From Escherichia phage vB_Eco_mar004NP2: a DNA stretch of 64,000 nt. Positions 8,391-63,685 of this stretch are shown here, piece by piece. The DNA lies in sequence record OR896837.1, one strand, 5' to 3'. A model generated the notes under the pieces. The model ran no database searches, was not told the DNA's origin, and saw only the letters and a program-made list of their open reading frames with translations. The position numbers and the translations under genes are program-made. The number at the start of each line of letters is the position of its first letter. Within the stretch, counting starts at the first letter, position 1.

Positions 8391-8699
8391 ATGAGCGAAC
8401 AGGTAAATCAAAACTATGAAGGACACGTTGATGACCAGTCCATCATACTCTGGGAGAAGGAGGGAGAACAAGTAAGATTAACAGTATCTGAATTTCGTGG
8501 GAATCTATACATGGGTATTCGTTACTGGCTTCTTGATATTAATGATGAATGGTTTCCAACGAAATCTGGCTTCTCTTTTCCTTACACCCTAGAAACAACA
8601 TCGCAGCTTTTCTATGCGTTTACACAGATTCTTAGCGAATCTGAGGTTTTACATGAAGTACAGAAACGAGCTGAAGAACTCAAAGCCAAGAATGCCTAG
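8391..8699 (+). CDS. PC4/p15-like ssDNA-binding protein (putative)
   Basis: Pattern RLTVSEFRGNLYMGIRYW...WFPTKSGFSFP resembles the PC4 coactivator fold signature (K..VS...F.G...IDIREYW...PTKKGISL). Confidence 0.4.
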   Translation: MSEQVNQNYEGHVDDQSIILWEKEGEQVRLTVSEFRGNLYMGIRYWLLDINDEWFPTKSGFSFPYTLETTSQLFYAFTQILSESEVLHEVQKRAEELKAKNA

Positions 8700-37900: not shown

Positions 37901-38621
37901 CAGCTTCTTGTAGTGATCTAGCAAGGGTCTGAACAGGAGTACCTGTCTGAGTACCTACTATAACACCAAATTTTTCTAGACGATTTAGCTGATCACCTAG
38001 TTTAAGTTGTTCAAATGCTGATTGCAAAACGAAGATGTTGGAAGCAAGAGCTGCGTACATAATAGGTAGACTACCACCGATCTTAGCCATTGCCGCAAAA
38101 TCACGAGTTGCACCACGTGCTGAACCAGAAGTATTACCAATAGCTCTAGAAGCTCTACCAGCGGCACCAGCAGTATCATTAAAACCCCTAGCTGTGCCAC
38201 CTAATGCTCTATTAGTATCATATAATCTATCCTGGACTTTTTCTGTTGCAGCTGCAACATCATTACCTATTGTTTTAACAGATCTAGAAACTCCATCGAA
38301 TCCAATTTCTAGTTTATCTGTCACTTCAATAAGCTGGATAGCTAGGTAATCTAGTTTATCACCAATATCATTAATAGATTTGGTGATACCAGCCATACCC
38401 CTACTAGCTTGCATTTTAGTAAGACTTTTTGCTGCTCTGTCTGCTGCCCTCTCAATGGAATAAAGAGTTCTGGGCATTTTACCTAACTGCTCATTTGTCA
38501 GTTCGGAAGCAGCAGCAGCATTTTCCAACGCATCAGATACGTTTTCAATAGACTTTGCAGTACGAGTTGCTCCCTTCTGTTTAACGTCTATTAGTAATTC
38601 TCGTATTAGCTTATCAGTCAT
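34938..38621 (-). CDS. tail tape measure protein (pb2-like)
   Basis: 1227 aa, long Ala/Gln-rich coiled coil, hydrophobic segment near the C-terminus (VAAGLAGALALA). Confidence 0.85.
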   Translation of the reverse strand: MTDKLIRELLIDVKQKGATRTAKSIENVSDALENAAAASELTNEQLGKMPRTLYSIERAADRAAKSLTKMQASRGMAGITKSINDIGDKLDYLAIQLIEVTDKLEIGFDGVSRSVKTIGNDVAAATEKVQDRLYDTNRALGGTARGFNDTAGAAGRASRAIGNTSGSARGATRDFAAMAKIGGSLPIMYAALASNIFVLQSAFEQLKLGDQLNRLEKFGVIVGTQTGTPVQTLARSLQEAAGYAISFEEAMRQASSASAYGFDAEQLNKFGLVARRAAAVLGIDMTDALNRVIKGVSKQEIELLDELGVTIRLNDAYADYAKQLNAANTGITYNVNSLTTFQKQQAYANAVIAESTKRFGYLDEVLRATPWEQFAANADAALRKIQQAAAKYLGPVIDAINTVFYTSQASISAEAARAQEKTNRQIDPTNVGAVALSLAASEEGYNKALDMYKESLDKRNKLKSEFDKRMEQADFYTKLAIRQVGEGIPVGLVAAGASEANKQFVAETAAMGLQVTRLGKEVEDSTENLNAWKSAYQAAGAAAAKASPEFQKQINLQRDTTDPDAVYDFNSTVLKGLTEQQKAYNQTKKTASDLANDIQNVAQNTDTAAKTSATLADAIKNIESLSLGTGKSADEYVKNLNLGYNTLSEMKTASQALSEYVKLTGNETKNQLAVQQKIADVYNQTKDKEKAQEAGRRLELQQLEEQEAALRRVLQTNQGNKAVEKEIEKIQLEKLKLTNQGMEAQKKVKDYTDKILGVDREIALLNNRTMTDTQYRLAQLNLELTIEKEKYEWYTKQADKQKEAEQSRRSQAQIEREIWKFRQDQQAEMTSKRQEAFENTLTSMFPLAGEMQKMEMQLDFYTQMKELTKGNANEQMRWNAEIAKTRAQMSALTAQRNAQMQQQVGSSVGAVYTPTTGLSGEDKDFADMQNRMASYDQAISKLSELNSEATAVAQSMGNLTNAMIQFSQGSLDTTSLIASGMQTVSSMIQYSTSQQVSAIDAAIAAEQKRDGKSEASKAKLKKLEAEKLKIQQDAAKKRIIIQTAVAVMQAATAVPYPFSIPLMVAAGLAGALALAQASSASSMSSIADSGADTTSYLTLGERQKNIDVSMSANAGELSYVRGDQGIGNANSFVPRAEGGNMYPGVSYQMGEHGTEVVTPMVPMKATPNDELKTSSNSTSGRPIILNISAMDAASFREFASSNSSALRDAVELALNENGTSLKTLGNS

Positions 38622-38633
38622 GTTTTATTTTTC

Positions 38634-38669
38634 CCAATAAAAAAGGCTCTGGGCAAATCACCCAGAGCC
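38634..38669 (-). terminator. rho-independent terminator fused to a conserved motif upstream of the tape measure gene
   Basis: Minus strand GGCTCTGGG-TGATTTG-CCCAGAGCC then TTTTTTATTGGGAAAAATAAAAC-ATG. Confidence 0.6.
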
Positions 38670-38704
38670 AAGCCTCATCGTGGAACGCCCATTGGAGGAA
38701 ACTT

Positions 38705-39073
38705 TTACCGTGCACGAGATCTAGCATGTGGCTTAACGTTAGGAATCCTTCCGTTTTGCGGTTTATGCTTCTCAGCACGTTTACGTGCAGCATCTACAGC
38801 TTTAGCATCAAATATATTGATAATGTGTAGAACAAATTCTTTCTCTATAGGATCAGTAATCCCATAAATATCAAATAAAACACCTAGAGCAGCCTTATCT
38901 TTACCTATAAAGATAGGAAAGTCACCTGGTATGAAGCAGTCAATTAGACTGTTATAAATATTCATACTAGTAGCCACAATAGGTGGAAAGTCTTCAAGTT
39001 CAACAGGCATGGCCTTAGGATCAGGCTCTATACCCATTGATTCACAAAGTATTAAATATTGTTGTTTAGTCAT
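38705..39073 (-). CDS. tail assembly chaperone (putative)
   Basis: 122 aa, between the tail tube and tape measure genes (position of G/GT-type chaperones). Confidence 0.4.
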   Translation of the reverse strand: MTKQQYLILCESMGIEPDPKAMPVELEDFPPIVATSMNIYNSLIDCFIPGDFPIFIGKDKAALGVLFDIYGITDPIEKEFVLHIINIFDAKAVDAARKRAEKHKPQNGRIPNVKPHARSRAR

Positions 39074-39134
39074 TTTAGATGCTGAGCTTTTAATACACTT
39101 ATCTGCAAAATCAGCAACAGCATCTAGGAGTTCT

Positions 39135-39554
39135 TTACGCTTTTGGGCTACGAAAAGTGTCTAAGTGGAACACTGTCTGGTTGATCCAAGAATCAAACGC
39201 AGCAGAGTTCTGCATGAGCATTACAGCATTATCGCGGCTAAAAGGAACTTCAGTAGCAGGATCAGCATCTGTTTCAATCAGCATCAGTTTTTCAACGTCA
39301 CCTACAGTCAAACCGGTCCAACCTTTAATAGCTGCGTCAACGAAGGCTTCAATGAACTTATCATCATCCTGTACCTGAATCAAAGTACCATTAACCCATT
39401 CATCGCGTTTAGCAGAAGAAATAACACGTTTAGAGGTAGCACGAGACATATAGTTAAGTTCTAATTTAAAGTTCGGCATACCTGGGTAGGAAAGAGTAAT
39501 AGTACGAGTATCAAGAGTAATATCTTTTAAATTAATCATTTTTAATTTCTCCAA
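39135..39554 (-). CDS. tail assembly chaperone (putative)
   Basis: 139 aa, position as above. Confidence 0.4.
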   Translation of the reverse strand: MEKLKMINLKDITLDTRTITLSYPGMPNFKLELNYMSRATSKRVISSAKRDEWVNGTLIQVQDDDKFIEAFVDAAIKGWTGLTVGDVEKLMLIETDADPATEVPFSRDNAVMLMQNSAAFDSWINQTVFHLDTFRSPKA

Positions 39555-40434
39555 AGAAATCTATTCTCACTGGGTCTGAAGAAGCAGTAGGTATAATATC
39601 CCACTCAACTCTATACACATCTGAGAAATCTAGGCGTTTTGTAATACGTGCTGAAGGAAAATCTATAGAAATATTATTATTTCTTATATTTAAAGGTACA
39701 TCTGTCTCCGGTTCGATATTGTAAACCATATCTCCTGCAAAACGTTTTAAGTAATATAGAGAAATGGTTGCCGAAGCATTCATTTCAGTTACATAGGCTC
39801 TTTTATTATTATAAATTTTATTTATATCAAAAACACTCTTATCCTCTCTCCAAGAGCACTGCTGCTGGAAAGATAAAGAGGCAGAAATAAGACCGGGTAA
39901 GATGCTGCCATTAGTAGAAGCTATTACTGGGCTGTAAGACATTACTTCACCCTGTATAATAGAAGCTGCTTCTCTATAGGTAGATACTTCTGAGAATTTC
40001 CCAGACTCAATACCAACATTAAGAATTGGTATGTTCTTATCTAAAGAAAAATCTACCGTAGATACATAACAGTTTTCAAAATATACACAGTTATTATCTT
40101 TATTTACTATATAGATATTGAACATAATAGGTTCAATATTACTACTATATAGTGGGAGTAAGAAAGTATTACCTTTTCTATCAAAACCTAACCATTCAAA
40201 GAAGTTAGCTTCAGTAAGAGTATTACTGAAATTTACTGCTAGAGAGATAGAAGAGGGGGTTTGAGCATTTATAATAGAGTCTGCATAGTTAGTTCTATGA
40301 TGAACAGTCCTACGAAGAGTCTTGAATTCCTCGTAGGAAGTCTGTATATCATAGTTTGATAGGGCATCAAAATGAAATGCCCTACCATCATACTCAACTA
40401 TAACTTTTGACTCTCTCATTAGAGAGTAGTACAT
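39532..40434 (-). CDS. tail protein (p140-like)
   Basis: 300 aa, directly downstream of the tail tube gene as in T5. Confidence 0.4.
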   Translation of the reverse strand: MYYSLMRESKVIVEYDGRAFHFDALSNYDIQTSYEEFKTLRRTVHHRTNYADSIINAQTPSSISLAVNFSNTLTEANFFEWLGFDRKGNTFLLPLYSSNIEPIMFNIYIVNKDNNCVYFENCYVSTVDFSLDKNIPILNVGIESGKFSEVSTYREAASIIQGEVMSYSPVIASTNGSILPGLISASLSFQQQCSWREDKSVFDINKIYNNKRAYVTEMNASATISLYYLKRFAGDMVYNIEPETDVPLNIRNNNISIDFPSARITKRLDFSDVYRVEWDIIPTASSDPVRIDFFGEIKND

Positions 40435-40438
40435 TTAA

Positions 40439-41809
40439 TTAGCCACCAGAACCGTCTTTAGCTACAGCTTTCACAGTAACTTCTCCAGTCTTAGTAGTAT
40501 CCGCAGTTAATAGACCAGATTCTGGATCAATTGTAGCTGCATCACCGCTAGAAATAGACCAAGTTACAGCACTATTAGTAGCATCTGACGGAGTTACTTC
40601 AACAGACATCTGTAGAGTATTGCTATTCTCCACTGAAGTGACATTACCAGCTGATTTAACTGTGATTGATTCAACTAGTTTTGGTGGAGTTTTAGCGCCA
40701 TCTCCTGTAGCAATCAGATTAGCCACAGTGGTTTTAGTATACTTGTTAGAAAAACCAAGATAACCTTCATCACCAGTATCCAGATCTGTAGGGATAGCTT
40801 TAAACTCTACTGAAGTACCAAGTACATCAACAGTCTCAATATTAGGAATATTAACATGCGCCTGTTTAGCAACTAACACAGCTGCCGGACGTTCATCATC
40901 ATATTCACCACCAAGGATAAGTGCAACTTCAAACTTGTTAACTACCTTAAGAGTTTTAATTAGATCTTTATATAGCTCCATAGATCCTAGAGCTTTATCA
41001 TTAAGGTAAGCTGTCAGAGAACCAGTTAGTTCAAACGCACCAGTAAATGAACCGATCGGAATATTTACACGGGACATAATATTGGGGGTTAGGTACGTAA
41101 TATTGTTATTAATGGTGAAAGTACCTCCAGTAATAGGGATATCATATGCCTTATCAGAATCCATATCCTTAATTTTCAGGATAGTCAATTTGTTCTTGAT
41201 ATAAGAACTCTGAATAGTCATATAAGTTTCATCATCAACACCTACAGTATCAGGATCAAATGGTTGCTCATCCAAAGGAATAAGCTGGTTACCATTACCT
41301 GACCAAGTTACACGACCAATATCCTCAATATCAACGTTAACTTCTGCCTGGTTGATCTGGCAAGAGTCGATGTAACTCCATGCTTTGTCAGTCAGGATGT
41401 AGATATGCAGCATTGCCAGTTCGTGGTACGCGTTATCTTTAAAGTTAACCATAAAATTGGTTTCGTTATTATGTGCTCCTGTATCACCTTTTAGGTTAAG
41501 AGCTTTACCGCTAGAAATAGCATGCCATAACATATAGTCAGGGACAATCTGTTTGTTAGTAGTTTTATCTATATATGGCAGGATATAAGTAGAGAAACTC
41601 CACTCAGCCGCGTTTAAAGAGTCATTAAAACGTTTAGAACCACGAGTTGGACGCGGACCAGCTTCATTAACAGTAATATCTGTTAAGTTACTGTCCTGAC
41701 CCCAAGAAATATCATCCTGAACTAGAATCTCTTGCGTGTTGGTCTTATTATGACCAGTCTTAACCGTAGACACGAAGATTCGAGTATTACGTAATAGTTG
41801 TAAAGACAT
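40439..41809 (-). CDS. major tail tube protein (pb6-like) with C-terminal Ig-like domain
   Basis: 456 aa; C-terminal ITVKSAGNVTSV...VTWSISSGDAATIDPESGLLTA... resembles Big_2 Ig-like domains. Confidence 0.7.
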   Translation of the reverse strand: MSLQLLRNTRIFVSTVKTGHNKTNTQEILVQDDISWGQDSNLTDITVNEAGPRPTRGSKRFNDSLNAAEWSFSTYILPYIDKTTNKQIVPDYMLWHAISSGKALNLKGDTGAHNNETNFMVNFKDNAYHELAMLHIYILTDKAWSYIDSCQINQAEVNVDIEDIGRVTWSGNGNQLIPLDEQPFDPDTVGVDDETYMTIQSSYIKNKLTILKIKDMDSDKAYDIPITGGTFTINNNITYLTPNIMSRVNIPIGSFTGAFELTGSLTAYLNDKALGSMELYKDLIKTLKVVNKFEVALILGGEYDDERPAAVLVAKQAHVNIPNIETVDVLGTSVEFKAIPTDLDTGDEGYLGFSNKYTKTTVANLIATGDGAKTPPKLVESITVKSAGNVTSVENSNTLQMSVEVTPSDATNSAVTWSISSGDAATIDPESGLLTADTTKTGEVTVKAVAKDGSGG

Positions 41810-50471: not shown

Positions 50472-52229
50472 TTAGGTAAGGCGTTGAACTGTTACTCTTA
50501 ATCTCGGTAGGAAAACTGCACTACCTAAACTTACGTGCATAACTACCCCTAACTCTACATTTCCATTCCCCAGATTTTTAGCAGTATATATAAAACTATT
50601 TCTACTTAGGGCATTGTTAGGTGTGTACCTAAAAGCAGATGTAGTATGAAAAGGTACTAAATACCCTACTGGTAATGTTAAAATCTGGTGGAATATTGCA
50701 TCTCCATTACTATAGCTATATGCTCTTCTTCCTTGCACTTGAAACACACCGTTATTCCATGTATTAGCAGGAACACCTGCACAGTTAAGGTTACCTGATA
50801 TAACTTCAGTGGTAAGAATTACTGTAGCATTGCCACCCGGTATACCTAGCCCAATAGTTGATAAACCAACGTATCTATCCCCTGTTCCCGGGTAGCTGGG
50901 AGTAATATCATCCCCCATGTAAGAGCTACCTACATTTCCACCAAAAAGTCGTAATGGAACTGCTGATGGTCCCCAAACAACCCCGTGTTCATTACCGATA
51001 GTATTATCCCTAGAGTTTACATACCATTGCTTACCCGCTCCGAATTTGTAAATGCTAATTTGGGATTTAGCTCCACCATAGTCTACAGGAGACCATAATC
51101 CTCCATTACTAGACCCTACAAGTTCACACCTTGCCGTGGTATCCCCAAAAACCCCGGTATACGCTGCGTTATTTCCTATATACTCCATATCAGGACGGTA
51201 ACCTAGGTTACCAAAAGCATTCTGATTTATAAATTTATACCCGGTATTAGGGAGACTTACCCCTTTAATTATGAAATTAGAAGGAGATATAAGAATATCA
51301 GAACCAGTAAAGGGGTTGCCTGAAATACTCATTCCACCATTAGAGTACCTTAAATTAAGAACATACCAAATAACCTTAGTAGGGGTTATATTATACCAAT
51401 CCTGTAGTATTGTAGAGTCACCCGACTGGTTAGCTAAATTAGTAGTAGATCCCCTACAAACAAATCTGTTCCCACCGTCGTGGTACATAGTATTTACATT
51501 ACCTGGGAGCCCTTGTCTAACCCCACCGTATCCACGTATATTAGAGTTGCAAACATAAAACCAATCATGCCCTCTATGTGCTGCTCCTAGAGGCGACATC
51601 CATCCAGGATCCCAATAGTACGGGTTATTCCCATCTACAGGTACTGTGCTACTATTAGTAGGAAAACCTAATTGTGCAAAGGCTTCTGCAACAGTAACAC
51701 CTACAGGAGCTCCCGCACCAGGCCTAACTATCCCATGGTAGGTACTATGTAACGTAGTACCACCTGTACCACTCCTAGAGATAGATTCTTCGTGCCATAT
51801 CGATGGGTTATAATTATAAGTTCCAGATGCTAGACTATTACCAAATGCAAATCCACTGGTTTGAGAAACACTAGCAAAAGATCTAAAGGGGTCTGCTTGA
51901 GTGGCAACTATAGTTTGACCAACTTTACTCTGAGTACCATTAAGAAAAGCTCTGTGAGTACCATTAATCTCAATAGCAGTTAGTATAACTCTACCAGGAT
52001 CATTAGATTTAATATTTACTATATCAGGAGGCATCTGACATACGAAAAACCCATTCCCGGCATCACCTAATCCTGCCTCATAAGTACCCTCAACTAGAAC
52101 AAATGGCATATCACTATGAAAAATACTATTATTACTTGGACTATAGTGACGATTAATGTCACCCCCAGATTCAGTATTTAAAGATAGTACGGTCTTACCA
52201 TCGCTATACTTTCCAGCGAAAAAACCCAT
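50472..52229 (-). CDS. receptor-binding tail protein (pb5/Oad-like)
   Basis: 585-aa Gly/Asn/Thr-rich beta protein, divergent from the lipoprotein gene as in T5 oad-llp. Confidence 0.5.
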
Positions 52230-52984: not shown

Positions 52985-53175
52985 TGGAAGTGGCAGCTAC
53001 ATTAATAGTAATATTAATCTGGGCAATTTTCATTGTTTCTTATACCGCGTATGTTCGCCTAAAAACTCTAGAGGCCCAGGTAAAGCAGCAACAATTTGCA
53101 CTAGAAAAATTAGTAGAGCTTCAACGCTGTGATAGTACCCGTATTCTGCAAATTGAGAGGGAATTAGATGTTTAG
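52981..53175 (+). CDS. small membrane protein (64 aa)
   Basis: N-terminal TM helix (AATLIVILIWAIFIVSY) then coiled-coil-like tail; ATGA overlap with the previous ORF. Confidence 0.4.
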   Translation: MMEVAATLIVILIWAIFIVSYTAYVRLKTLEAQVKQQQFALEKLVELQRCDSTRILQIERELDV

Positions 53176-53413
53176 TATTGTAATTGCTTTTATTATCGGG
53201 ATACTCGCGGGAGTTTTCGGGACGACTGCGGCAATCAATAAGCATCGTAAATATATTGCGGGAGTGACGCGGGAGATTGCGGAAAGGGAGCGGAAGTTTG
53301 ACGAGAAACGTGCGGAGTTTGAGCGGGAGTGGTCGGATGGATCTCGGGCGTCGCGGAAGAGATTCCGTGAGTTCAGACCAGAATACAGGTTTGATGACCC
53401 TTCTATGCGCTAA
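53168..53413 (+). CDS. small membrane protein (81 aa)
   Basis: N-terminal TM helix (IVIAFIIGILAGVFG), highly charged C-terminus; 3' end lies in the 76-bp tandem repeat. Confidence 0.4.
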   Translation: MFSIVIAFIIGILAGVFGTTAAINKHRKYIAGVTREIAERERKFDEKRAEFEREWSDGSRASRKRFREFRPEYRFDDPSMR

Positions 53414-53519
53414 TTTGACTTTTGCCAATTTCTTTGGATTACGTGAGTTCAGACCAGAATACAGGTTTGATGACCCTTCTATGCGCTAATTTGACTTTTG
53501 CCAATTTCTTTGGATTACG
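53368..53519. repeat. 76-bp tandem direct duplication (2 copies)
   Basis: GTGAGTTCAGACCAGAATACAGGTTTGATGACCCTTCTATGCGCTAATTTGACTTTTGCCAATTTCTTTGGATTAC occurs at 53368-53443 and again at 53444-53519. Confidence 0.9.
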
Positions 53520-53641
53520 TACGCGTGGGTGTGTCCAGTGGCCCCCCAGATGAGAATGAGTCTCATTACCGCCCGGTACTTAGCAGGCTAATAGTCACGG
53601 CATGGTATCATTACACACCGTGACTATTTCAACTTTAATTG

Positions 53642-54376
53642 TTAGGCAACTTTTAATTTCTCAATATATTGTTGAGGACTGCAACTATATTCTGCGCGTT
53701 CTTCCTCGGTCATACCTTCCCAGCATAATTTTAAACGGTCAGCTAGGAATTGATAATCATTATCATCGTCGAGAGATTCATCAATAAAGGTTTCACCTAT
53801 CAATGCCACGCCGATTGATAGAATATCATTAACGGCTTGTGCGTCCAGCGTTTTAAATCCGTATGACGCTGCCGCTGATAGCACGCCTTTATGATCATCA
53901 ATCATTGTAAAATCAGCGTTAGGATATAACTGTTTAAATAATTCAAAATAATAAGATTTATATACTGCGTCTTTGCTGTGGTATATTTCGCTAACCTTAT
54001 CAGCTTTAAAATATTTGTGTAGTGTATCGCGGGAAAATACGCGGATATTACTATTACCACGACCGCGCAACCCTTGTTTACGCAAGAAATAATAGTCCGA
54101 CTTACTCATCAGTCGAGCGGTGCAAATAATGTTTAAAGTATTTGCGTCATTCATGCACTGGCGCATATATTCAACCAATGGCAATAAAGTATCTTGCATT
54201 ATTAAATGGTGTTTACACGCTTCATTTTTATACTTATTTAAATCTAAATTGCCCTCGCTATCAAAGCAGGGTGCTATACGATGGAAAGAATTAATGATAG
54301 TGCCGTCTAAATCCCAAATCATGACGCGGGAAATATGCGGGAAGCTGCGGGAAAGATTCATGATAGCTTTATTCAT
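53642..54376 (-). CDS. dmp: HAD-family 5'-deoxyribonucleotidase (Dmp-like pre-early protein)
   Basis: HAD motif I IWDLDGTII; 244 aa; next to the A1-like gene. Confidence 0.65.
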   Translation of the reverse strand: MNKAIMNLSRSFPHISRVMIWDLDGTIINSFHRIAPCFDSEGNLDLNKYKNEACKHHLIMQDTLLPLVEYMRQCMNDANTLNIICTARLMSKSDYYFLRKQGLRGRGNSNIRVFSRDTLHKYFKADKVSEIYHSKDAVYKSYYFELFKQLYPNADFTMIDDHKGVLSAAASYGFKTLDAQAVNDILSIGVALIGETFIDESLDDDNDYQFLADRLKLCWEGMTEEERAEYSCSPQQYIEKLKVA

Positions 54377-54455
54377 TTGTTACGTTCTCCATTTAAGGGA
54401 TTAGATTAATTCAGCATTACCCGCTATTTATAAGCGGGTAATAATAAATTAACTA

Positions 54456-54848
54456 TTAAAGACCATAAGCCAACGCATCGGCGATAAAACTAACATCCTC
54501 ACCTGATACATGGGAACGAATCCCCGCACAAGTATATACTTTTGCAGAAATCAATTGATCATCAAGGCAAGCGGGGCAAGGCGCGACAACTGCAAAGGCT
54601 AGACCGGATTTTACTGCGTCGATGATAATCGTTTCTTGTTTCGCCGTGTCAACATAAACGCCTTTTGCTTTAATATGGCTAGTTAGTTTGCCTTGCATAT
54701 ATGCAAATGTTGTAACCTGCAAAGCGTCATTGAAATCTAGCAATTCATCAATAACGTGCCCCGCCTCGACGTGGTAACGCTCACCATTAGAATAAACCAG
54801 AACAATTGAGGATTGAGCGCGGTCAAATGGAATATTTTGCTTTTTCAT
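54456..54848 (-). CDS. hypothetical pre-early protein
   Basis: 130 aa; GC-richer codon usage than the late genes. Confidence 0.45.
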   Translation of the reverse strand: MKKQNIPFDRAQSSIVLVYSNGERYHVEAGHVIDELLDFNDALQVTTFAYMQGKLTSHIKAKGVYVDTAKQETIIIDAVKSGLAFAVVAPCPACLDDQLISAKVYTCAGIRSHVSGEDVSFIADALAYGL

Positions 54849-54886
54849 GTTTATAAAACTCCAATTAGTTTAATAATGGATTTAAT

Positions 54887-55144
54887 TTATTTGATAATAA
54901 TCTGCATCTGGTACGGTGTTAATTCACCGTTTACGGGTAAATTATTATCGCTTAGCCACTCATAAAAAGCACCATCATCGTCAAAGGGTACAATATCATT
55001 ATCACTATAATCGACCGTAATAATCCCATCAGTATTAGTTTTGGCGGCTAGAATAGGCCCGAAGCTGTAAACTTTATCGGATTCCATTTCATCCGGTGAA
55101 ATAAATGCTTTTTCGTCTAGCGTTTTGGGTAATGTAACTTTCAT
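54887..55144 (-). CDS. hypothetical protein
   Basis: 85-aa acidic protein. Confidence 0.4.
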   Translation of the reverse strand: MKVTLPKTLDEKAFISPDEMESDKVYSFGPILAAKTNTDGIITVDYSDNDIVPFDDDGAFYEWLSDNNLPVNGELTPYQMQIIIK

Positions 55145-55200
55145 TCTAATTTAGCTCCTGTAATAGCGGCTATATTTCAAGCCGCTAGGGGATTAATTAT

Positions 55201-56865
55201 TTACGCAAAGAATTTACCGTTTTTAAAGTCAATCAAAGTGCGCTGACCGTTTGCATAGGTAATTAAATGCGTTTGCGTCCAGCTTGACGCGCCAACGTTG
55301 TAACCCATGTCCAGACTACCAGCTACGCCAGCGGTATACACGCCGCCATAAATGCTGGCGGTGTGAGTGTGTCCGGTGTTTAATTTGCCCAATTTCTTAA
55401 ATTGTTTAGGATTGCCACGGCTGCCGTTAATGCCGTTGTGACCGTGTACGCCGCATTCAATGCCTACAATCTTGAAAGATTGGTCAGTAGTTAGAAAAAT
55501 GGCGTTAAACTCACAACCTGCAACCTTGCGCAGCGCATAATCTAGCACGTTGAAAGTATCGTCTTTTTCTGCAATAGCTCCATAAATCGCGGCATTTAGG
55601 CGGTGATATAGTTCCGCGTTTGCTGGATCGTCTTTAATGTTAGCATTACGATCATCAAGCCAACGGGATAGCGCCAAATCGTGATTAGATTCAACAATGA
55701 TTGTTTGCGAGAAATCACGTTCCATTGATTCCAGCACGCGCCCCGTATCGATAAGATCATCTAATACCTTATCACGTCCGGCGGCGTATTGTTTTGCTAG
55801 GAATACACCGGATGCGCGGTTGTGATGGTTGCGTGATGTAAAATCATGCACGTCATGGATAAACTGATATTTAGGCTTGAGAATATCAAGCAAGCTATTT
55901 TCGCCAGCCCATGACGCAACGGCACAATCATCATCTAGTTTTTCTGCGTGAATATCGCCGTATTGCAAGCCTAAAACATGCCCCGATGTCTCATAGCATC
56001 CGGCAGGAGTAGCGCACACATTCAGATCATAAAATACCCCGCTTTCGTCCATCGTTTCGAGCTGGCGTACAAAAAATTCCCCGTCCTCGTCGAACTCGAC
56101 AATTAGCGCACCGAAGTTATGCAGCGCCTCGGCCTTTTGTCCTGCTTTCTGCTGAATGTAGTTTTTGAGCGTTGCCGTTCCGGTTGAGTACATACGGCGC
56201 ACTACTTCACCTTTTAAAGCTGGCACGCTTTCAGCGGTAATTTTAGCGTGACCAATTGCCAGACCTTCCAGATTAAGCGCCGTTGCAGTTTCAGCGAATC
56301 CAGAAAGCGGATAATCTGCGGTTGGCAAAACGTTAATTTCAGCCATGAAAGCAAAACGGCGGTTATTTAAAAACACGTTTTTATTGCAGATATATTTGTC
56401 AAATGCGGAATCATATTTTATTCCTTCTGCACCCTCGCCATTTTGAAAACCGTTTTTGTTATAAATAAACTTGCTAACCAGCAAATCAGCGCCGATATAT
56501 TTAGCAAATTGCTCCAATGAGGCTAAAAAGTTTTTATGCGGGAAAGTATTATTCTGAATCGACGTAATAATAAAGCGTTTACCCTGCTTTACTTCCCATT
56601 GCTCAACCGTGCTAGAAACAATCCCCGCCGCTTCTGGACGCTCATCGTTTTTAATGGCTTTTGCTACTTTCGCCGCTTTCGGTTTAGCTGGTTTATTTGC
56701 TTCCAACCAGTCGCAGATAGCGGTCGAGTGTTTTGTTGTATCGTAGACCGCTTTTGATATATCGTCGCAGACCTCCAGTTTAGTAGCGCGCAGACGTTTA
56801 CCATAGAAATTAAAGTCAGCGGCCATTTTCAGGATAACGGTTTGTTTTTCTGTGGAAATAATCAT
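55201..56865 (-). CDS. A1: A1-like pre-early metallophosphatase/nuclease
   Basis: 554 aa with calcineurin-like motifs (GDIHAE, ESNHD, GVHGHNG, GHTHT); size close to T5 A1 (about 556 aa as I recall). Confidence 0.65.
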   Translation of the reverse strand: MIISTEKQTVILKMAADFNFYGKRLRATKLEVCDDISKAVYDTTKHSTAICDWLEANKPAKPKAAKVAKAIKNDERPEAAGIVSSTVEQWEVKQGKRFIITSIQNNTFPHKNFLASLEQFAKYIGADLLVSKFIYNKNGFQNGEGAEGIKYDSAFDKYICNKNVFLNNRRFAFMAEINVLPTADYPLSGFAETATALNLEGLAIGHAKITAESVPALKGEVVRRMYSTGTATLKNYIQQKAGQKAEALHNFGALIVEFDEDGEFFVRQLETMDESGVFYDLNVCATPAGCYETSGHVLGLQYGDIHAEKLDDDCAVASWAGENSLLDILKPKYQFIHDVHDFTSRNHHNRASGVFLAKQYAAGRDKVLDDLIDTGRVLESMERDFSQTIIVESNHDLALSRWLDDRNANIKDDPANAELYHRLNAAIYGAIAEKDDTFNVLDYALRKVAGCEFNAIFLTTDQSFKIVGIECGVHGHNGINGSRGNPKQFKKLGKLNTGHTHTASIYGGVYTAGVAGSLDMGYNVGASSWTQTHLITYANGQRTLIDFKNGKFFA

Positions 56866-56962
56866 ATTAATAAAACTCCATTAAAGGGATTAAAAAACGT
56901 TTGTTATTGGCAAATATTGCCAAATATAACGCCTTGAATAATAGGCGTTATAATTTGCAACA

Positions 56963-57160
56963 TTAATTTAAAGGCATAAGGCTAGAACTAACACCACAAG
57001 CAATGGCGGCAATAAAACAAATCAGACCTAAACGCTTTGCCAATTTAGACTTACGTTTAAAATAATATGAGTCTAAATCATTTTGAAAATAAGCGAATAA
57101 TAACGAGGCCGCCATAATAAATAAGCCTAGAATTAACGATTCAGTGGGGTAAAAGATCAT
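56963..57160 (-). CDS. small membrane protein
   Basis: 65 aa with two hydrophobic helices. Confidence 0.4.
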   Translation of the reverse strand: MIFYPTESLILGLFIMAASLLFAYFQNDLDSYYFKRKSKLAKRLGLICFIAAIACGVSSSLMPLN

Positions 57161-57216
57161 TTTAAAACTCCAGTCAAAGAGAAATTATAGTGGGGAATAT
57201 TCCCCGCTAATTAAAT

Positions 57217-57624
57217 TTATTCACCTGCGGCCTGTTTTACTTCATCGGCAACGCCTAACAGTTGCGCTACGGCGTCCAGCGTTTCAAGTTTTGCACTTTC
57301 CAGACTTGCCAGACCGTCGGCGTCTTTAATAATGCCGGAATCAATAGCATGTTTAGCGATAACGCGTACATAGTGAGCTTTGCGGATTGAGCTACCGCCG
57401 CCAACTTTGCGAGGCTTATCGCTTTTCTGATACGCTTTTGCGCTGGTCAATTTTGATCGAACAGACACGGGAGAAGACGCGCCCACTGCTTTTGCAATCT
57501 CTTTTAAACCGTCGCTATTTGCGAAATCTAAACCGTTTTCATTAATTAACTGCTGGTACATAGAAACAGCTTTTTGAGTGTTTTCTTCATTCCAAGCAAA
57601 TTTTGCGGTTTTAACGTTAGTCAT
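57217..57624 (-). CDS. hypothetical pre-early protein (candidate A2-like by size and position, unverified)
   Basis: 135 aa, immediately upstream of the A1-like gene. Confidence 0.4.
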   Translation of the reverse strand: MTNVKTAKFAWNEENTQKAVSMYQQLINENGLDFANSDGLKEIAKAVGASSPVSVRSKLTSAKAYQKSDKPRKVGGGSSIRKAHYVRVIAKHAIDSGIIKDADGLASLESAKLETLDAVAQLLGVADEVKQAAGE

Positions 57625-57720
57625 GGTAAAAACTCCTATTAGTTTAATTTAAGGGATAAGATTAACATAATGTTAATCGTTATATCCCCCGAACTACTGG
57701 GGGATATAAAAGTAACACTA

Positions 57721-57972
57721 TTACGCTACAGCTTCCCATTTTTCGTTACGCTGTACAACCTTTACAACGTCGCCGGATTTAACGCGAACGCTAAAAACGG
57801 TTTTGCCGTTGTTACTACGTTCATTTTCAGCGTATACCGCGTCGATTGTATCAAACGGCATAAGCGCCGCACCTTTAATACGTTCGGCTTTTCCGGTTAG
57901 TTCATCCGTTTTAGTAACGAAAGGAATAAAAACGGATTGACCAATTTTAGGCGCGGTAATAACGTTTTGCAT
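57721..57972 (-). CDS. hypothetical protein
   Basis: 83-aa ORF with an RBS. Confidence 0.4.
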   Translation of the reverse strand: MQNVITAPKIGQSVFIPFVTKTDELTGKAERIKGAALMPFDTIDAVYAENERSNNGKTVFSVRVKSGDVVKVVQRNEKWEAVA

Positions 57973-58202
57973 AGTATAAACTCCAAGTTATTTAGGGGAT
58001 TGTTCCGCATTACCTGCTAGAAAGTAGCAGGTAATAAGCAACAATCCGCTCACCGCTATAATCAATTTAAGGAACTCCACGCAGGCTGCTATATCCCAGT
58101 TAGGGGGCAGGATGATTTATGGGGAATCACCTAACCGTCAAATTGTATCAAGTTATCGCTCTCATCGAACTGGGTACATCTTAAAGCCTATCGGCTAGGG
58201 TG

Positions 58203-58406
58203 TCAAACTGTTTTTTGCAGTTTTTTATGATTTTCTTTCAGGTCGATCATAATATTACGCCAGATCATTTCTAAACCCTGCTGGCGGCCTTTCTTGTACT
58301 GAGCAAATCGGTATTTTACGGATTGCTGGGCTATTGTCAACAATTTTTTAGTAGTACCATCTAATTTTTTAGCTGGTTTACCAGTGATCAATAAAGTTTG
58401 TTTCAT
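58203..58406 (-). CDS. hypothetical small basic protein
   Basis: 67 aa, Lys-rich. Confidence 0.35.
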   Translation of the reverse strand: MKQTLLITGKPAKKLDGTTKKLLTIAQQSVKYRFAQYKKGRQQGLEMIWRNIMIDLKENHKKLQKTV

Positions 58407-58863
58407 ATCTGCGATTCCTTATAATATAAGTTTACCGCCGATAGACTTTAAGATGTACCCAATTTTTAAAGAGCGCGGCGGTAAACTTCCCGCCGTGTAG
58501 TTCGTCATTGCCGCCCTACGAGATAAATAATAGCAAATAGTAAAAATGGCGCAACCTTATTTTTGTAAAGAAACGTAAAGACAAAATGCCACCGGACACC
58601 GTGCGGCGACCTGGGCGCGGCGCACTAAAATTAAAGGAAACGGGCGCGCGAATACCATAAAACCCAGCAGGTTGGCAAGTAATTTTTTCATTTATATTTG
58701 CCTTGCCCTACTTGACAAAAACTAAAAAGCTCGTGGTAGCGATAAACGAGGGTAGGCAATGCAATGGCATGGCTAAAAACTTCATCGCGTTATAGGGCGT
58801 TTTAGGCGCATTCTAGCCTTGTTGATAACTTATCCCCAAAAGCAAAAATGAAATTTTCCTAGT

Positions 58864-58895
58864 TATCCACTTGACTTTTATTTTCCAGTGGATAA
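58864..58895. promoter_or_regulatory. inverted pair of DnaA-box-like sites
   Basis: TTATCCACT (58864-58872) and AGTGGATAA (58887-58895) form a palindrome around TTGACTTTTATTTTCC. Confidence 0.4.
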
Positions 58896-59156
58896 CTACT
58901 TATTTTATGAAATAAATTAATTGACTTTTATTTGTTAGTATGCATCGGAAAGATAGCAGACTAATAGTTGCTAGGATGATAATCATGCTGGTGGATTGTA
59001 ATAGCCGGAACTGTTAGCAGACTATTAATCACGGAAAATCTCATTAGCCAACTAACTATTTCATGATATATAATATACTTATAAATTAATGAGAAATAAT
59101 AATTATAAGAAATCGTAACCGATAGAAATAATAACTATAAGAAACTATCGTCCTAA

Positions 59157-59286
59157 GTGAGAACCACTATCGTTTAAGTTATCCACAAGTTTATTAACAG
59201 CACAAAATGATTTGACACGATAGGCGACGATATAAGGACTTATCCACAGACTTATCCACATGTTATCCTACTGTATAAATATACAG
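59157..59286. repeat. left inverted repeat with three DnaA boxes
   Basis: TTATCCACA at 59179, 59240 and 59252; ends in palindrome CTGTATAAATATACAG; about 80% reverse-complement match to 62758-62884. Confidence 0.7.
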
Positions 59287-59552
59287 GGTAAAAAGGTAGT
59301 GTTAACAACTGCAATCAATTTTAGGCGGCCTAAAACGCTTTCTAACGAGCTAAATGCGGTGGGGTAATATTAAAGTGAAGCCTTCACCCGTCGCCCTGGT
59401 GGCTTCACCGTGTTTTGCTCTTTACTGTACCGCTGCGCGGTTAGCATAAAACTAGGCGCTAGGCAAGGAAAATAAAAAGGTAAAATAATATTTGCCTATG
59501 CTAGAAAATTGCCTTTATCATTCACTCACCGATTAACGAGGGAGGCCAACAA

Positions 59553-60314
59553 ATGAGGCTATATAAACCAGGTAACGCAACCGTCTTAAAAGGTGCGCTG
59601 CGTAACCTGCTGGACGGTAGCAGAACAACCAGCATTAAACATTTTATTAACAAGGCTGAAACTATTCACCAAAACTTTTTTGGTGATTTCGATGCCTATG
59701 ATATGAATAGTTTTCTACCGTTATATAAACAAGGGGCAACGCTTGTTTTATATAATCAAGATTATCAATTGCTCACTAGTCGAGGGCCGGATACTGATTT
59801 CATAATCGTAAAAGGTAGCACAGTAAAAGCCTATGATACTGGGGCAGGCTTAGAAGTTTTTTCAATAGAAAATTATGAAGCCAACCCCAATGATCTTTAT
59901 GATATTGAAAATTTTCTTGATTCATTTTGGCGTTATTTATCAGTTGGCTGGAATCGGTCGGATTGTGACGGGTATCGTTTCGCGGCTGTAATGGCCTTTG
60001 ATGATAACGGTAATTTTTTGTTACCGTCGGAAGTGTACCCTTATGTATATGAGGGGGATATTGAAAGCGCGGGCTTTTCTTTCTGGAAGGAGGAAGATCA
60101 GCCTATTGACAACACGGAAAAACATGCTGTAAATTCTAACACTCAAAGCGTTAACACTCAAACTACTGAAAACAAAGGAAATAATACCATGACCAAGATC
60201 GCTAATATCGTTGCCGCTAATAAATCCGCTGTTGTAAATGCTGCAAAACTGGAAGCTGGCAAAATTGCATTGACTCAAATCACGAAAGTAGCGGCTAAAA
60301 ACCGCCGTTTATGA
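59553..60314 (+). CDS. hypothetical pre-early protein
   Basis: 253 aa; RBS GAGGGAGG. Confidence 0.5.
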   Translation: MRLYKPGNATVLKGALRNLLDGSRTTSIKHFINKAETIHQNFFGDFDAYDMNSFLPLYKQGATLVLYNQDYQLLTSRGPDTDFIIVKGSTVKAYDTGAGLEVFSIENYEANPNDLYDIENFLDSFWRYLSVGWNRSDCDGYRFAAVMAFDDNGNFLLPSEVYPYVYEGDIESAGFSFWKEEDQPIDNTEKHAVNSNTQSVNTQTTENKGNNTMTKIANIVAANKSAVVNAAKLEAGKIALTQITKVAAKNRRL

Positions 60315-60544
60315 TTAAAGGTTATATTGATACGCCGATTGGTCGGGTAGTTATTGCTAACCTGCTGAGCGTAGCGGTTGACCAGTACGCCCCGAATAAC
60401 CAGAAAGCGAAAGCGGTAGCAGGCGCAGCTATGGAAGCGGCAATGCTAGAAATGGTGCAAAGTTTTAACATCGCTGAAATGATTGATGAAATGGTGAAAG
60501 GTATCGATATTTCTACTTTTACCACTAGCACCGAAAGCGAGTAA
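60311..60544 (+). CDS. hypothetical protein
   Basis: 77 aa; ATGA coupling. Confidence 0.45.
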   Translation: MIKGYIDTPIGRVVIANLLSVAVDQYAPNNQKAKAVAGAAMEAAMLEMVQSFNIAEMIDEMVKGIDISTFTTSTESE

Positions 60545-60609
60545 TAATATTTAGTGGGGATTGTTTCCCCGCTTTACTATTCCCTTATTAATTAATAGGA
60601 GGCTAATAA

Positions 60610-61104
60610 ATGGCTGAGGAAAAATATGGGTTTTCGCTAGGGGAAGTGAGCAAGGCTAAACATGATATGATCATTTTGGTCGATTGTCATACTGGCTATT
60701 GCGGTGAAGGGAATACTGAGGAATATTTTGTTCCTGCTGGTACGGATCTCGACGCTTTCGCTCATGAAATGGCTGTTGATAATGCTTCTCGTTTTGGTAG
60801 CGATGGCTATGAAGATGAGGAAACGGGCGAATGGTATGAGAATGATAATGTATATGCAAGCCTTTATCATTATCAATTAAGTAAATCCGGCACATATGTA
60901 AACGGCGGCGATCCTATTAATTCCGTCATGAAATTAATTATTAAATATGGTGGCGCTGAAATAATCGGAAATAAAGCGGTAATATACGCAAACCGACTAA
61001 AACAGCTTGTTTATATCCCTGATAGTACCCGATGGGATGAATACGCTGTTTTGCATGACGAATTGAAACGATGTTTCAATATTGAAACATTACAAGTAGT
61101 TTAA
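60610..61104 (+). CDS. hypothetical protein
   Basis: 164 aa; RBS AGGAGG. Confidence 0.5.
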   Translation: MAEEKYGFSLGEVSKAKHDMIILVDCHTGYCGEGNTEEYFVPAGTDLDAFAHEMAVDNASRFGSDGYEDEETGEWYENDNVYASLYHYQLSKSGTYVNGGDPINSVMKLIIKYGGAEIIGNKAVIYANRLKQLVYIPDSTRWDEYAVLHDELKRCFNIETLQVV

Positions 61105-61210
61105 TGTAAAGTTTTGTAAAGGTCGCCATAATTGGTGGCCTTTTTTGTTATAATGCCTTTACACCGTTTAAGGACGGTTGAAAATTTTCCCAAAAATTTG
61201 GAGGCTTAAA

Positions 61211-61441
61211 ATGGTTGCTTATTCTTCTGCTAGTCATCTGTTTACCGCGCAAGGCTGGGTATCTAATCATGCTGTCATCTATGAAATGGTGCAGGAGTTC
61301 GGTATTGTTAAAACCTATAATACCATTCAGGAACTATATAACGCCGATAAAATCGATCAGCAAACGGCTGGCTTTTTGCTGGATACCCTGAAGGCGGAAC
61401 ATTGCACCAAAAAACAAGCTGCAAAAATTGTTTTAATGTAA
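61211..61441 (+). CDS. hypothetical protein
   Basis: 76 aa from ATG 61211 with GGAGG RBS (track start 61178 is TTG). Confidence 0.4.
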   Translation: MVAYSSASHLFTAQGWVSNHAVIYEMVQEFGIVKTYNTIQELYNADKIDQQTAGFLLDTLKAEHCTKKQAAKIVLM

Positions 61442-61491
61442 TTAATAACGGGGGATATAATATCCCCCGATAACTAGGAGGATATCACAAA

Positions 61492-61641
61492 TGGTTATTT
61501 TTCGAGCTATTCTAGCAGGTATCTTGGGCGCTATTTTATCACTTTTTGCAATAGCTTTCGGCGTTCACGCGGTTATTATTGGTGCGGGTATCGCTGTATT
61601 TTCTTATCTGCTGGGCTGCATGACTAGTAAAGGAGAATAAA
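61492..61641 (+). CDS. small membrane protein (49 aa)
   Basis: Hand-translated MVIFRAILAGILGAILSLFAIAFGVHAVIIGAGIAVFSYLLGCMTSKGE; RBS AGGAGG. Confidence 0.35.
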
Positions 61642-61642
61642 A

Positions 61643-61855
61643 ATGATTCGTAACGTTTCCCTTGCACGTTCAAAAGGCTTTAAGCTGGTGGACGTTAACA
61701 CGTTCGAGCGGGAAGATTGTAAAATTGAATATGTAGCGCGAAATAAAAACGTCTTCCGTGTTACCGAGAAAAAATTCGATAAACGGGGCAACGTGATAGC
61801 TGAAACAGTTAAACATTTTGCCACCTTTTACGCTGCGTTTCGGGGAGTGCTATAA
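61643..61855 (+). CDS. hypothetical protein
   Basis: 70 aa; RBS AAAGGAGA. Confidence 0.4.
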   Translation: MIRNVSLARSKGFKLVDVNTFEREDCKIEYVARNKNVFRVTEKKFDKRGNVIAETVKHFATFYAAFRGVL

Positions 61856-61856
61856 A

Positions 61857-62201
61857 ATGGTAATTTATGAAGGCAATCGTTTTGTTGCTAATTGCCGTCC
61901 GGCATTACTAGCAAACTACTTAAATCAGCTTTCCCCAGCTTATAAGGGCGTTATTAATATTTATGAAGGCAAGGCGCATTATAAAATCAATGCGGTCGTT
62001 GCCCGTGAACTAGCGTTTCAATTTTTGACCTTTGCATCTTGCGACGTTCAGGTCATGGGTGAGGCGTTAATTGCAGAAAATGAAGATGATTTTATTAATA
62101 TTTTTCGCAAGATATGCACCGAGCGCCTGATAATGAAAGGCGCGTATATTCAATCCACTGCGGATAGTATTGAAACAGCGTTTCGAAAGGTGGCGCAATG
62201 A
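61857..62201 (+). CDS. hypothetical protein
   Basis: ATG 61857 directly after the previous stop (track start 61818 is further upstream). Confidence 0.4.
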   Translation: MVIYEGNRFVANCRPALLANYLNQLSPAYKGVINIYEGKAHYKINAVVARELAFQFLTFASCDVQVMGEALIAENEDDFINIFRKICTERLIMKGAYIQSTADSIETAFRKVAQ

Positions 62202-62301
62202 GATTATATATTTTCGCGGGTAATGTTGAGGCTGCAAATGATTCCGCTGGTGGCGATAACGTTCGCCACTATTGGCAAAAATATATTTACTAGGGGTTAT
62301 T

Positions 62302-62496
62302 ATGAACAATAAAATTGTTGTAACCAAAATCAGTACAATGGTTGATGTTTTTTACGTGCCCGATACGCCGGAGAATCGGCAAGCGGTCGAGCGTGGCGAA
62401 TATGATAGCGTTATTTATGATGCCGATGGTTATTATCAGCATTTGGTGGATTCCTACGGGGAGGAGGAAAAGATCACGCATCGACTACCAGACTAA
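62302..62496 (+). CDS. hypothetical protein
   Basis: 64 aa from ATG 62302 (MNNKIVV...). Confidence 0.3.
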   Translation: MNNKIVVTKISTMVDVFYVPDTPENRQAVERGEYDSVIYDADGYYQHLVDSYGEEEKITHRLPD

Positions 62497-62757
62497 TAAT
62501 AACGGGGCGCAACTACCAGGGAGTGCCCCCAATTCTCAAATGAGAGTGATTCTCATTTAACCGCGCCCGCGATGGTTAGCCTGCTAATGATTAAGGTGTT
62601 ACATGTCGCCTTGTGTGATCGTTAGCAAGCTAACTAATTTTTAAGCCTCCTCCAATTTTGCCCTTGTTTTAGTATCCCCATCAAAATTAAACGCGTTAGA
62701 ATGCGATTCAGGACGTTTTAGGCCTATATTAGAATTATTCACTACATAGGAATATTG

Positions 62758-62884
62758 TATATTTATACAGTAGGATAAGCTGTGGATAAGTCTGTTAATA
62801 ACGCCTCAAAATGGCTAGGATTCTGTCAAATCAAATCGTGCTGTTAATAAGTCTGTGGATAACTTAAATAACAGTGTTTCTCAC
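62758..62884. repeat. right inverted repeat with DnaA boxes
   Basis: TGTGGATAA at 62781 and 62854; reverse complement aligns with 59157-59286. Confidence 0.7.
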
Positions 62885-63060
62885 TTCCATTCTTAAATGA
62901 GAATCATTATCATTCGCATTCCACTGTCTAACCGATAATCATTTCCTTTCTTAAATGAGAATCATTTCACTTTTTGAATAGTTCTCATTTCACTTCTTAA
63001 ATGAGAATCATTATCATTCGCATTCCACTTCTTAAATGATAATGATTCTCATTCAAAGTC
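62885..63060. repeat. array of TCTTAAATGAGAATCATT-type repeats
   Basis: At least four direct or inverted copies of AAATGAGAATCATT / AATGATTCTCATT; related palindromes at 53547-53568 and 62537-62560. Confidence 0.7.
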
Positions 63061-63078
63061 GCAGGGCAATTGCCCTGC
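63061..63078. repeat. perfect 18-bp palindrome
   Basis: GCAGGGCAATTGCCCTGC. Confidence 0.9.
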
Positions 63079-63084
63079 GCTTTT

Positions 63085-63685
63085 GTGCAAATCCGACATA
63101 TGCCACCATGGATTACGCGCGGGCGTGTATGTGCGAATCCGACAATTTTTGGTAGTGTGCAAATCCGACCCCAAAAATTTTTATAGTGTGCAAATCCGAC
63201 AATGAATTTTCCCAAAAACTCCAGCAATCACGAACTGCGTTCGAATCCTGTGGGATATGTGCAAATCCGACACGGTTTTTCTAGGATTAAGATGTGCGAA
63301 TCCGACAAGATTTTTGTGACTTCGATTGGAGGGTGTGTGATTGTATAGGTTTGAGGAGAAGATGAGAGAGCGAGAGAAAATAAGGGGAGAAACTGGAGGA
63401 GCAGCATGGGTGGCGTGCAACGCCTGATTTGCTGCGTTTTTGGGAAGAGTTGAGAAGATTTGGGTTAATTTGAGATTAGTGGAGATAAAGTAAAATTTTA
63501 TTTGCTAAAGGTGGCAAAATAGCTTGACAAGTGAAAATTTTTTGTGACCCTAAAAACTCAGGCAATCATGGGCCTTCGGCCCGAAATAATGCTGCCATTT
63601 TCAGGAGATTATGTATTCATGAAAACTTAGGCGTTTGTGCAAATCCGACCATAAATTTCTAGAAACACAATGTGCAAATCCGACA
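63085..63685. repeat. dispersed array of GTGC(A/G)AATCCGAC(A/C) 14-mers
   Basis: Eight copies, at 63085, 63131, 63157, 63188, 63259, 63294, 63637 and 63672, all in the same orientation, irregular spacing, no ORF. Confidence 0.85.

Follow-up and report, generated by a model that had tools for sequence, protein, structure and literature searches.

Two identical stretches of DNA that lie head to tail over the 3' end of a small gene, close to the end of a phage genome, raise the question of whether such a duplication is a real genetic event, recent or maintained by selection, or a product of the assembly. We addressed this question in a contiguous stretch of 64,000 nt, hereafter referred to as the window, which is part of a Tequintavirus (T5-like, Demerecviridae) genome. 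With a probability of roughly 0.6, our answer is that the duplication is a real, recent and selectively neutral microhomology-mediated event in one T5-like lineage. The features on which the argument turns are collected in Table 1.

Table 1. Coordinates in the window of the duplication, the neighbouring genes and the predicted terminal repeat (DTR)
Feature	Position	Strand	Basis or remark
Receptor-binding protein	50472-52229	minus	gene order as in T5
Llp/Cor-like lipoprotein	52315-52581		gene order as in T5
81-aa single-pass membrane protein gene, T5.162 / BF23_00175 homologue	53168..53413	+	phrog_6447 and synteny
Mechanical 70-aa ORF, not a gene	53277..53489	+	TTG start, +1 frame inside the real gene, runs into copy 2
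CGT microhomology, left breakpoint	53366..53368	.	codon 67, Arg
Copy 1	53368..53443	+	codons 68-81 and stop (53368-53413), then first 30 nt of spacer (53414-53443)
Partial extra block copy, 37 nt, without the last 12 nt	53407..53443	+	made by the duplication
Copy 2	53444..53519	+	identical to copy 1; non-coding gene-tail fragment, no in-frame gene upstream
Complete pre-terminus block, GCGCTAA...TTTGGATTACGTACGCGTGGGTG, allele B	53483..53531	+	non-coding, directly upstream of the physical left end
12-nt remainder TACGCGTGGGTG	53520..53531	+	between duplication end and DTR start
Predicted single collapsed DTR copy, ~10.0 kb	53532..63550	+	homology to T5 and BF23; carries dmp, A1 and the injection-stop repeat region
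dmp	53642-54376	minus	inside predicted DTR
A1	55201-56865	minus	inside predicted DTR

Structure of the duplication

Self-comparison of the window revealed that 53368-53443 and 53444-53519 are identical throughout, so that the two 76-bp head-to-tail units described in the initial annotation are exact; for 76 adjacent identical bases, chance is negligible. TRF called the duplication with a period of 76, 2.1 copies and a score of 313, and reported it as the sole long-period near-exact repeat in the 64 kb, while no third copy of the unit was found on either strand of the window. Identity at period 76 spans 79 positions, 53366-53444 (79 = 76 + 3), and a CGT triplet is present at all three unit edges (53366-53368, 53442-53444 and 53518-53520). 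The junction of copy 1 and copy 2 reads TTTGGATTACGTGAGTTCAGACC. Each unit comprises the last 46 nt of the 81-aa gene, its TAA included, and 30 of the 42 nt of the spacer that precedes the DTR, and deletion of one copy restores the layout that is standard in the family, namely gene stop, 42-nt spacer and DTR start. Features of a microhomology-mediated tandem duplication are seen in the sequence of this locus: the copies are direct and head to tail with no intervening sequence, and a short shared sequence is present at both ancestral breakpoints, where the relatives read ...GATTC CGT GAGTT... and ...GATTA CGT ACGCG..., 76 nt apart.

The gene that overlaps the duplication is intact. Its product of 81 aa, which ends in ...EFRPEYRFDDPSMR, matches phrog_6447 ('membrane protein') with an E value of 2.6e-47 over profile positions 1-81 of 81, and the gene is syntenic with T5.162, behind which the right terminal repeat of T5 follows without a further gene in between. 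It had been proposed that copy 1 encodes the C-terminus of this ORF and that copy 2 re-creates the same peptide in another frame. Both statements hold: copy 1 corresponds to codons 68-81 and the stop codon, and because it holds this stop codon, the 81-aa protein is unchanged, whereas ORF 53277..53489 (70 aa) shares its last 15 residues with ORF 53168..53413 because 76 = 1 mod 3. ORF 53277..53489 is a mechanical by-product. As a second gene it was rejected, for it matched none of the PHROG families and is embedded, out of frame, in the real gene; moreover, it cannot exist in any relative, since the relatives have no copy 2. An ORF of 43 aa that spans the junction (53422..53553) was rejected as a gene as well, having no family match, and neither ORF was found on record.

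Genomic setting and the terminal-repeat boundary

The records closest to the window are Salmonella phage SPLA5b, PMBT29, Escherichia phage vB_Eco_mar004NP2 and Baret, with 99.6-99.9% identity locally, and SPLA5b remains 99.4-99.8% identical to the window across the greater part of 50 kb, apart from a single patch of 94%. Around the repeat, the genes follow each other as they do in T5 where the unique region ends on the right, with the Llp/Cor-like lipoprotein gene followed by small membrane-protein genes, the 81-aa gene being the last of them. The same succession is seen in T5 and BF23, i.e., oad, llp, four small membrane-protein genes, DTR start, dmp and A1.

The position of the boundary was obtained by homology. 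T5 (AY543070) starts with TGTCCACTGCC..., and its position 1 aligns to window position 53532; the T5 right repeat (AY543070 position 111532) begins 41 nt past the T5.162 stop codon. In BF23, the repeat start was mapped from reads with PhageTerm (PMC10644984). It corresponds to position 104801 of OR083247, reads TGCTCACTGCC, lies 41 nt past the stop codon and again aligns to 53532, where the window carries the homologous base (tgtccagtggcc; the boundary nucleotide is homologous, TGTCCA / TGCTCA). The annotated repeat edge of SIA3lw falls on 53533, the last base of the records VEc33, SP15 and JLBYU43 corresponds to 53531, and AKFV33 likewise ends at or within 2 nt of the boundary. At the right edge, the end of the T5 LTR corresponds to 63550, and full-length relatives end at ~63520-63546. 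Going by this homology, the DTR starts at 53532, 12 nt past the duplication, which agrees with the initial annotation in that the terminal-repeat boundary had been expected close to the repeat. From the DTR packaging strategy, the terminase is predicted to cut concatemers 12 nt from the right edge of the duplication. Once one copy is removed, the spacer of the window (42 nt) matches that of T5 and BF23 (41 nt each).

The window runs 450 nt beyond the DTR into left-unique sequence and thus contains one DTR copy between right-unique and left-unique DNA. This arrangement identifies the source record as an assembly that was closed into a circle, with the two repeats collapsed into one.

The start of the terminal repeat varies among deposited T5-like records. 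T5, BF23 (PhageTerm), SIA3lw, VEc33, SP15 and JLBYU43 share the equivalent of 53532, and discordant starts are found in Kenya-K16 (equivalent of 53552, +20 nt) and in chee24-type records (53626, +94 nt, just before the dmp stop). We also noticed an inconsistency of annotation, as dmp (5'-deoxyribonucleotidase, PF26880 Phage_T5_dNMPase) is labelled 'polynucleotide kinase' in SPLA5b and Baret.

The patch of lower identity to SPLA5b lies elsewhere in the window, at 36181-40453, where identity is 94% compared with 99.4-99.8% elsewhere. The genes in it are those of the baseplate-tube protein and the tail chaperones, together with the portion of the tape measure gene that encodes the N-terminus, and exact matches to its 300-aa and 1227-aa products were not found in a collection of 15 billion proteins. 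The low identity together with the missing exact protein matches suggests a recombinant tail module that is private to the lineage.

A conserved block upstream of the terminus

Every T5-like sequence that we examined carries a non-coding block of ~49 nt before the left end, whatever the upstream gene tail or insert may be. The block has the form GCGCTAA...TTTTGCCAA(A)TTTC...GATTAC...GGTG and occurs as two alleles, …CATAAGATTACACATGGAGGTG and …TTTGGATTACGTACGCGTGGGTG. The second of these, allele B, is common to the window, SPLA5b, OSYSP, SE11 and the 3' flank of the HNH cassette in other phages. The window thus differs from T5 and BF23 in having allele B (…TTTGGATTACGTACGCGTGGGTG) instead of allele A (…CATAAGATTACACATGAAGGTG), in addition to the extra 76 nt. 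The block is a candidate region for packaging, that is, for recognition or cleavage by the terminase. The duplication gave rise to a second, partial copy of it (Table 1), and the full block beside the DTR start is preserved because copy 2 then meets the untouched last 12 nt. The literature searched yielded no description of this pre-terminus block, and neither the duplication nor a defined terminase site of T5 was found in it.

The left breakpoint of the duplication coincides with a point at which related phages diverge. In 7 of 23 related loci (L017-L020, L022, L023 and L025), BLAST homology ends at 53367/53368, i.e., at codon 67 (CGT), the protein-level match covering query residues 1-67, and it resumes past this break at the conserved block or further on. 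Across phages, the interval 53366-53483 is a mosaic, recombination-prone hotspot: some carry other C-terminal tails here, some an additional small ORF, and HNH homing-endonuclease genes are found in NR01, SSP1, LVR16A, ECOP18 and MET_P1_179_112. In Salmonella phage MET_P1_179_112 (OQ383622.1), the small gene is intact and is separated from the DTR by an HNH gene that bears the annotation 'P-TflX'; this HNH gene is flanked by two non-identical block copies (92% over 36 nt; L083 1247-1886) and lies a few nt from the predicted terminase cut. As in the window, the same block of ~45 nt thus occurs as two direct copies shortly ahead of the DTR, which makes for at least one natural instance of its direct repetition. 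The two cases differ in that the copies of MET_P1_179_112 are non-identical, stand apart by an endonuclease gene of ~540 nt and do not include the gene tail, whereas those of the window are identical and abut. No endonuclease gene is present between the repeated blocks of the window, and HNH genes occupy this site only in relatives.

The block was also compared with the nick sites of T5, for which the major-nick consensus is R/GCGCRGG (PMC3517423). At the GCGC of the unit, the minus-strand TTA/GCGCATA matches this consensus only in part. The homologue of the T5 major nick has its GCGC at 63077-63080 (T5 9748/9749, minus strand), followed 29 nt later by GGATTACGCGCGGGCGTGT, which resembles the allele-B terminus motif GGATTACGTACGCGTGGGTGTGT, itself located 25 nt after a GCGC. 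The motif GGATTACG..CGTGGG.GTGT recurs near the homologue of the T5 7.9% nick (63110-63128), and the pattern GCGCN{20,35}GRATTAC matches only the block and the nick-homologue sites in the 64 kb (expected 0.48). A link between block and nick site was nonetheless not established, for a window-wide local-alignment scan gave equal or better scores by chance.

The surroundings of this nick homologue contain repeats of the injection-stop (iss) type near the right end of the DTR (62900-63330), namely tandem arrays of 23 nt and 35 nt at 62937-63054, which are followed by a palindrome rich in GC, GCAGGGCAATTGCCCTGC (63061-63078), and then by about seven boxes that resemble GTGCAAATCCGAC (63085-63310). 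This region fits the one described for T5 (bioRxiv 10.1101/866236).

Distribution among related phages

Comparison with related phages, which had been named at the outset as a check on the duplication, gave a uniform result in that all relatives examined have a single copy. One copy is present in SPLA5b, SIA3lw, chee24 and K16, in 23 IMG/VR loci, and in T5 and BF23. The same was observed for contigs that encode the identical 81-aa protein: all ten independent Logan/ENA/NCBI contigs of this kind (10/10), which are locally 99.2-99.9% identical to the window, carry one copy, and the distance from stop codon to dmp is 152-153 nt in these contigs compared with 229 nt in the window. The junction was not found as one contiguous piece in any of the 171 phage records matching a junction-centred query (0/171), and a 29-mer across it had no counterpart in IMG/VR or in the contigs of GTDB genomes and JGI metagenomes; neither the genomes nor the plasmids of E. 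coli yielded a match. Look-ups with a window-specific 40-mer or the exact protein did not retrieve a second assembly of the same isolate. Recurrent duplication at the same site was not seen in 23 + 40 T5-like loci, apart from the 127-bp cases discussed below and the block repeat that flanks the HNH gene. The duplication is private to the genome of the window among the relatives examined.

These results bear on the age of the duplication, for which the initial annotation had offered a recent event or active maintenance as the two explanations of identical copies. The first is supported, as relatives with 99.4-99.9% identity are without the duplication. If the duplication is real, the event is younger than a divergence of a few tenths of a percent, because the close relatives are single-copy, and recency is better supported by this absence than by the two 76-nt copies being identical. 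Active maintenance gains no support from the comparison, the duplication being missing in all relatives examined.

Origin of the duplication

We propose that illegitimate recombination or replication slippage took place between the two CGT triplets lying 76 nt apart. Such an event would have copied the end of the T5.162-like gene (14 codons and the stop) along with 30 nt of spacer, and would have left the 81-aa protein as it was. Packaging should be unaffected as well, with the full block kept beside the start of the terminal repeat. The predicted terminase cut, 12 nt away, and the insertion spot for HNH genes suggest that the duplication may have originated in error-prone double-strand-break repair. 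As the predicted terminase site and the HNH hotspot are both adjacent, break repair and polymerase slippage are equally plausible origins. By our calculation, a total extension of at least 3 nt would occur by chance in ~5% of cases, which favours a real event with microhomology at the breakpoint.

The duplication resembles the spontaneous microhomology-flanked tandem duplications of phages and bacteria in its exact head-to-tail copies, its 3-bp breakpoint repeat and its length of tens of bases, as well as in its absence from sister lineages and in the lack of damage to any gene. It is unlike them in lying 12 nt from a predicted terminase site and at an HNH hotspot. The 76 bp damage no gene and no complete block, and the event was probably neutral.

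The most serious alternative is an artefact of assembly or finishing, in which 76 identical bases at the ends of a circular contig, or a 76-nt overlap of contigs at the point where coverage changes from unique DNA to the DTR, were left untrimmed when the sequence was rotated or concatenated, so that the phage itself would have no duplication. The record is of the kind in which this can happen, for in a circularised assembly with a single DTR copy between right-unique and left-unique DNA, untrimmed overlaps at that place become internal tandem duplications. The site of the duplication is at this very coverage step, the copies are exactly identical, and the junction occurs in no relative and in no other collection searched. 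The default k values of SPAdes go up to 127, and 76 equals k-1 for k = 77, an overlap that some de Bruijn assemblers leave. In ~40 related loci of 10-20 kb, we found no other exact tandem duplication of at least 30 nt that was not k-sized. Exact duplications of 127 bp (x2.0) are present in two T5-like genomes, SIA3lw (PP094244.1) and a 118,118-bp IMG/VR genome, where they occupy different sites that lie 1.25-1.5 kb into the DTR. Like the duplication in the window, these are exact two-copy tandem repeats in circularised or rearranged T5-like assemblies, near the left boundary of the DTR.

The 127-bp duplications themselves look like untrimmed circular-contig overlaps in deposited T5-like genomes. 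They are located at 3924-4177 of the SIA3lw locus (L002; ~8398-8651 of the record) and, in IMGVR_UViG_2974619995, at L009 3804-4057, L070 8344-8597 and L071 9077-9330; the equivalents in the window are ~54781-54885 and ~55045-55171. In the latter genome, the duplication has been copied into both terminal repeats.

The differences between these cases and the duplication in the window weigh against an artefact. The period in the window is 76 and not 55, 77, 99 or 127, hence no standard k, whereas the overlap in the SPAdes comparators equals k exactly, and the window has 3 nt of flanking microhomology where the 127-bp comparators have none. The SIA3lw duplication falls among annotated small genes unlike those of related phages, with a CDS of 50 aa in place of one of 85 aa. 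No gene is disrupted in the window, an outcome that we estimate for only ~1 in 5 random positions. An artefact would also have to place its left breakpoint, by coincidence, on a mosaic junction that recurs across the family. There are no further signs of poor finishing either, as comparison of the assembly with SPLA5b shows only in-frame 3-nt indels or intergenic homopolymer indels. We thus regard an artefact as rather unlikely, though a serious contender, and the duplication as probably present in virion DNA.

Given a real event, one may speculate further that the duplication is the repair scar of the programmed cut at the left end, or of a homing-endonuclease cut there, and that the 49-nt block is the recognition or cleavage signal of a T5-like terminase. 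We consider this combined proposal improbable.

A selected function of the duplication appears less credible still. In this scenario, the extra partial block or the second ORF would alter packaging-site recognition, transcript 3' ends or protein output. The duplicated segment does hold 37 nt of a conserved non-coding block by the genome end, and the block is naturally duplicated around the HNH insert in MET_P1_179_112. Against this, the duplication is present in one genome among hundreds of relatives, including those that are 99.4-99.9% identical, the extra block copy is truncated by 12 nt on the side that faces the cut, and the second ORF has no family match and lies in the real gene out of frame. 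As for cis signals, no promoter-like or terminator-like site was detected within 53366-53520, and the DNA fold of 53340-53660 (321 nt; z = -2.2) is dominated by a dmp-side hairpin at ~53586-53628, inside the DTR, and is otherwise unremarkable.

Equally remote is the insertion of a homing endonuclease followed by its imprecise loss, instead of simple slippage: although HNH genes fill exactly this interval in NR01, SSP1, LVR16A, ECOP18 and MET_P1_179_112, and the HNH cassette bears a second block copy of allele B like that of the window, the join in the window is clean and head to tail with no endonuclease-derived sequence between the copies, these are identical compared with 92% over 36 nt for the blocks flanking the MET_P1_179_112 insert, and the repeat takes in 46 nt of gene tail that is not part of the cassette flank.

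Implications

The duplication in itself matters little, being apparently neutral or else an assembly error, and no protein is changed by it; the site in the record needs to be checked at the level of reads before it is used as a reference. If the repair-scar proposal were true, the isolate would be a natural mutant with one complete and one truncated signal, and as such would be useful for mapping the needs of the terminase. For the T5-like phages at large, the duplication points to a few dozen conserved non-coding bases upstream of the T5-type left terminus, in a hotspot of HNH gene insertion, which are the obvious candidate for the packaging cleavage signal.
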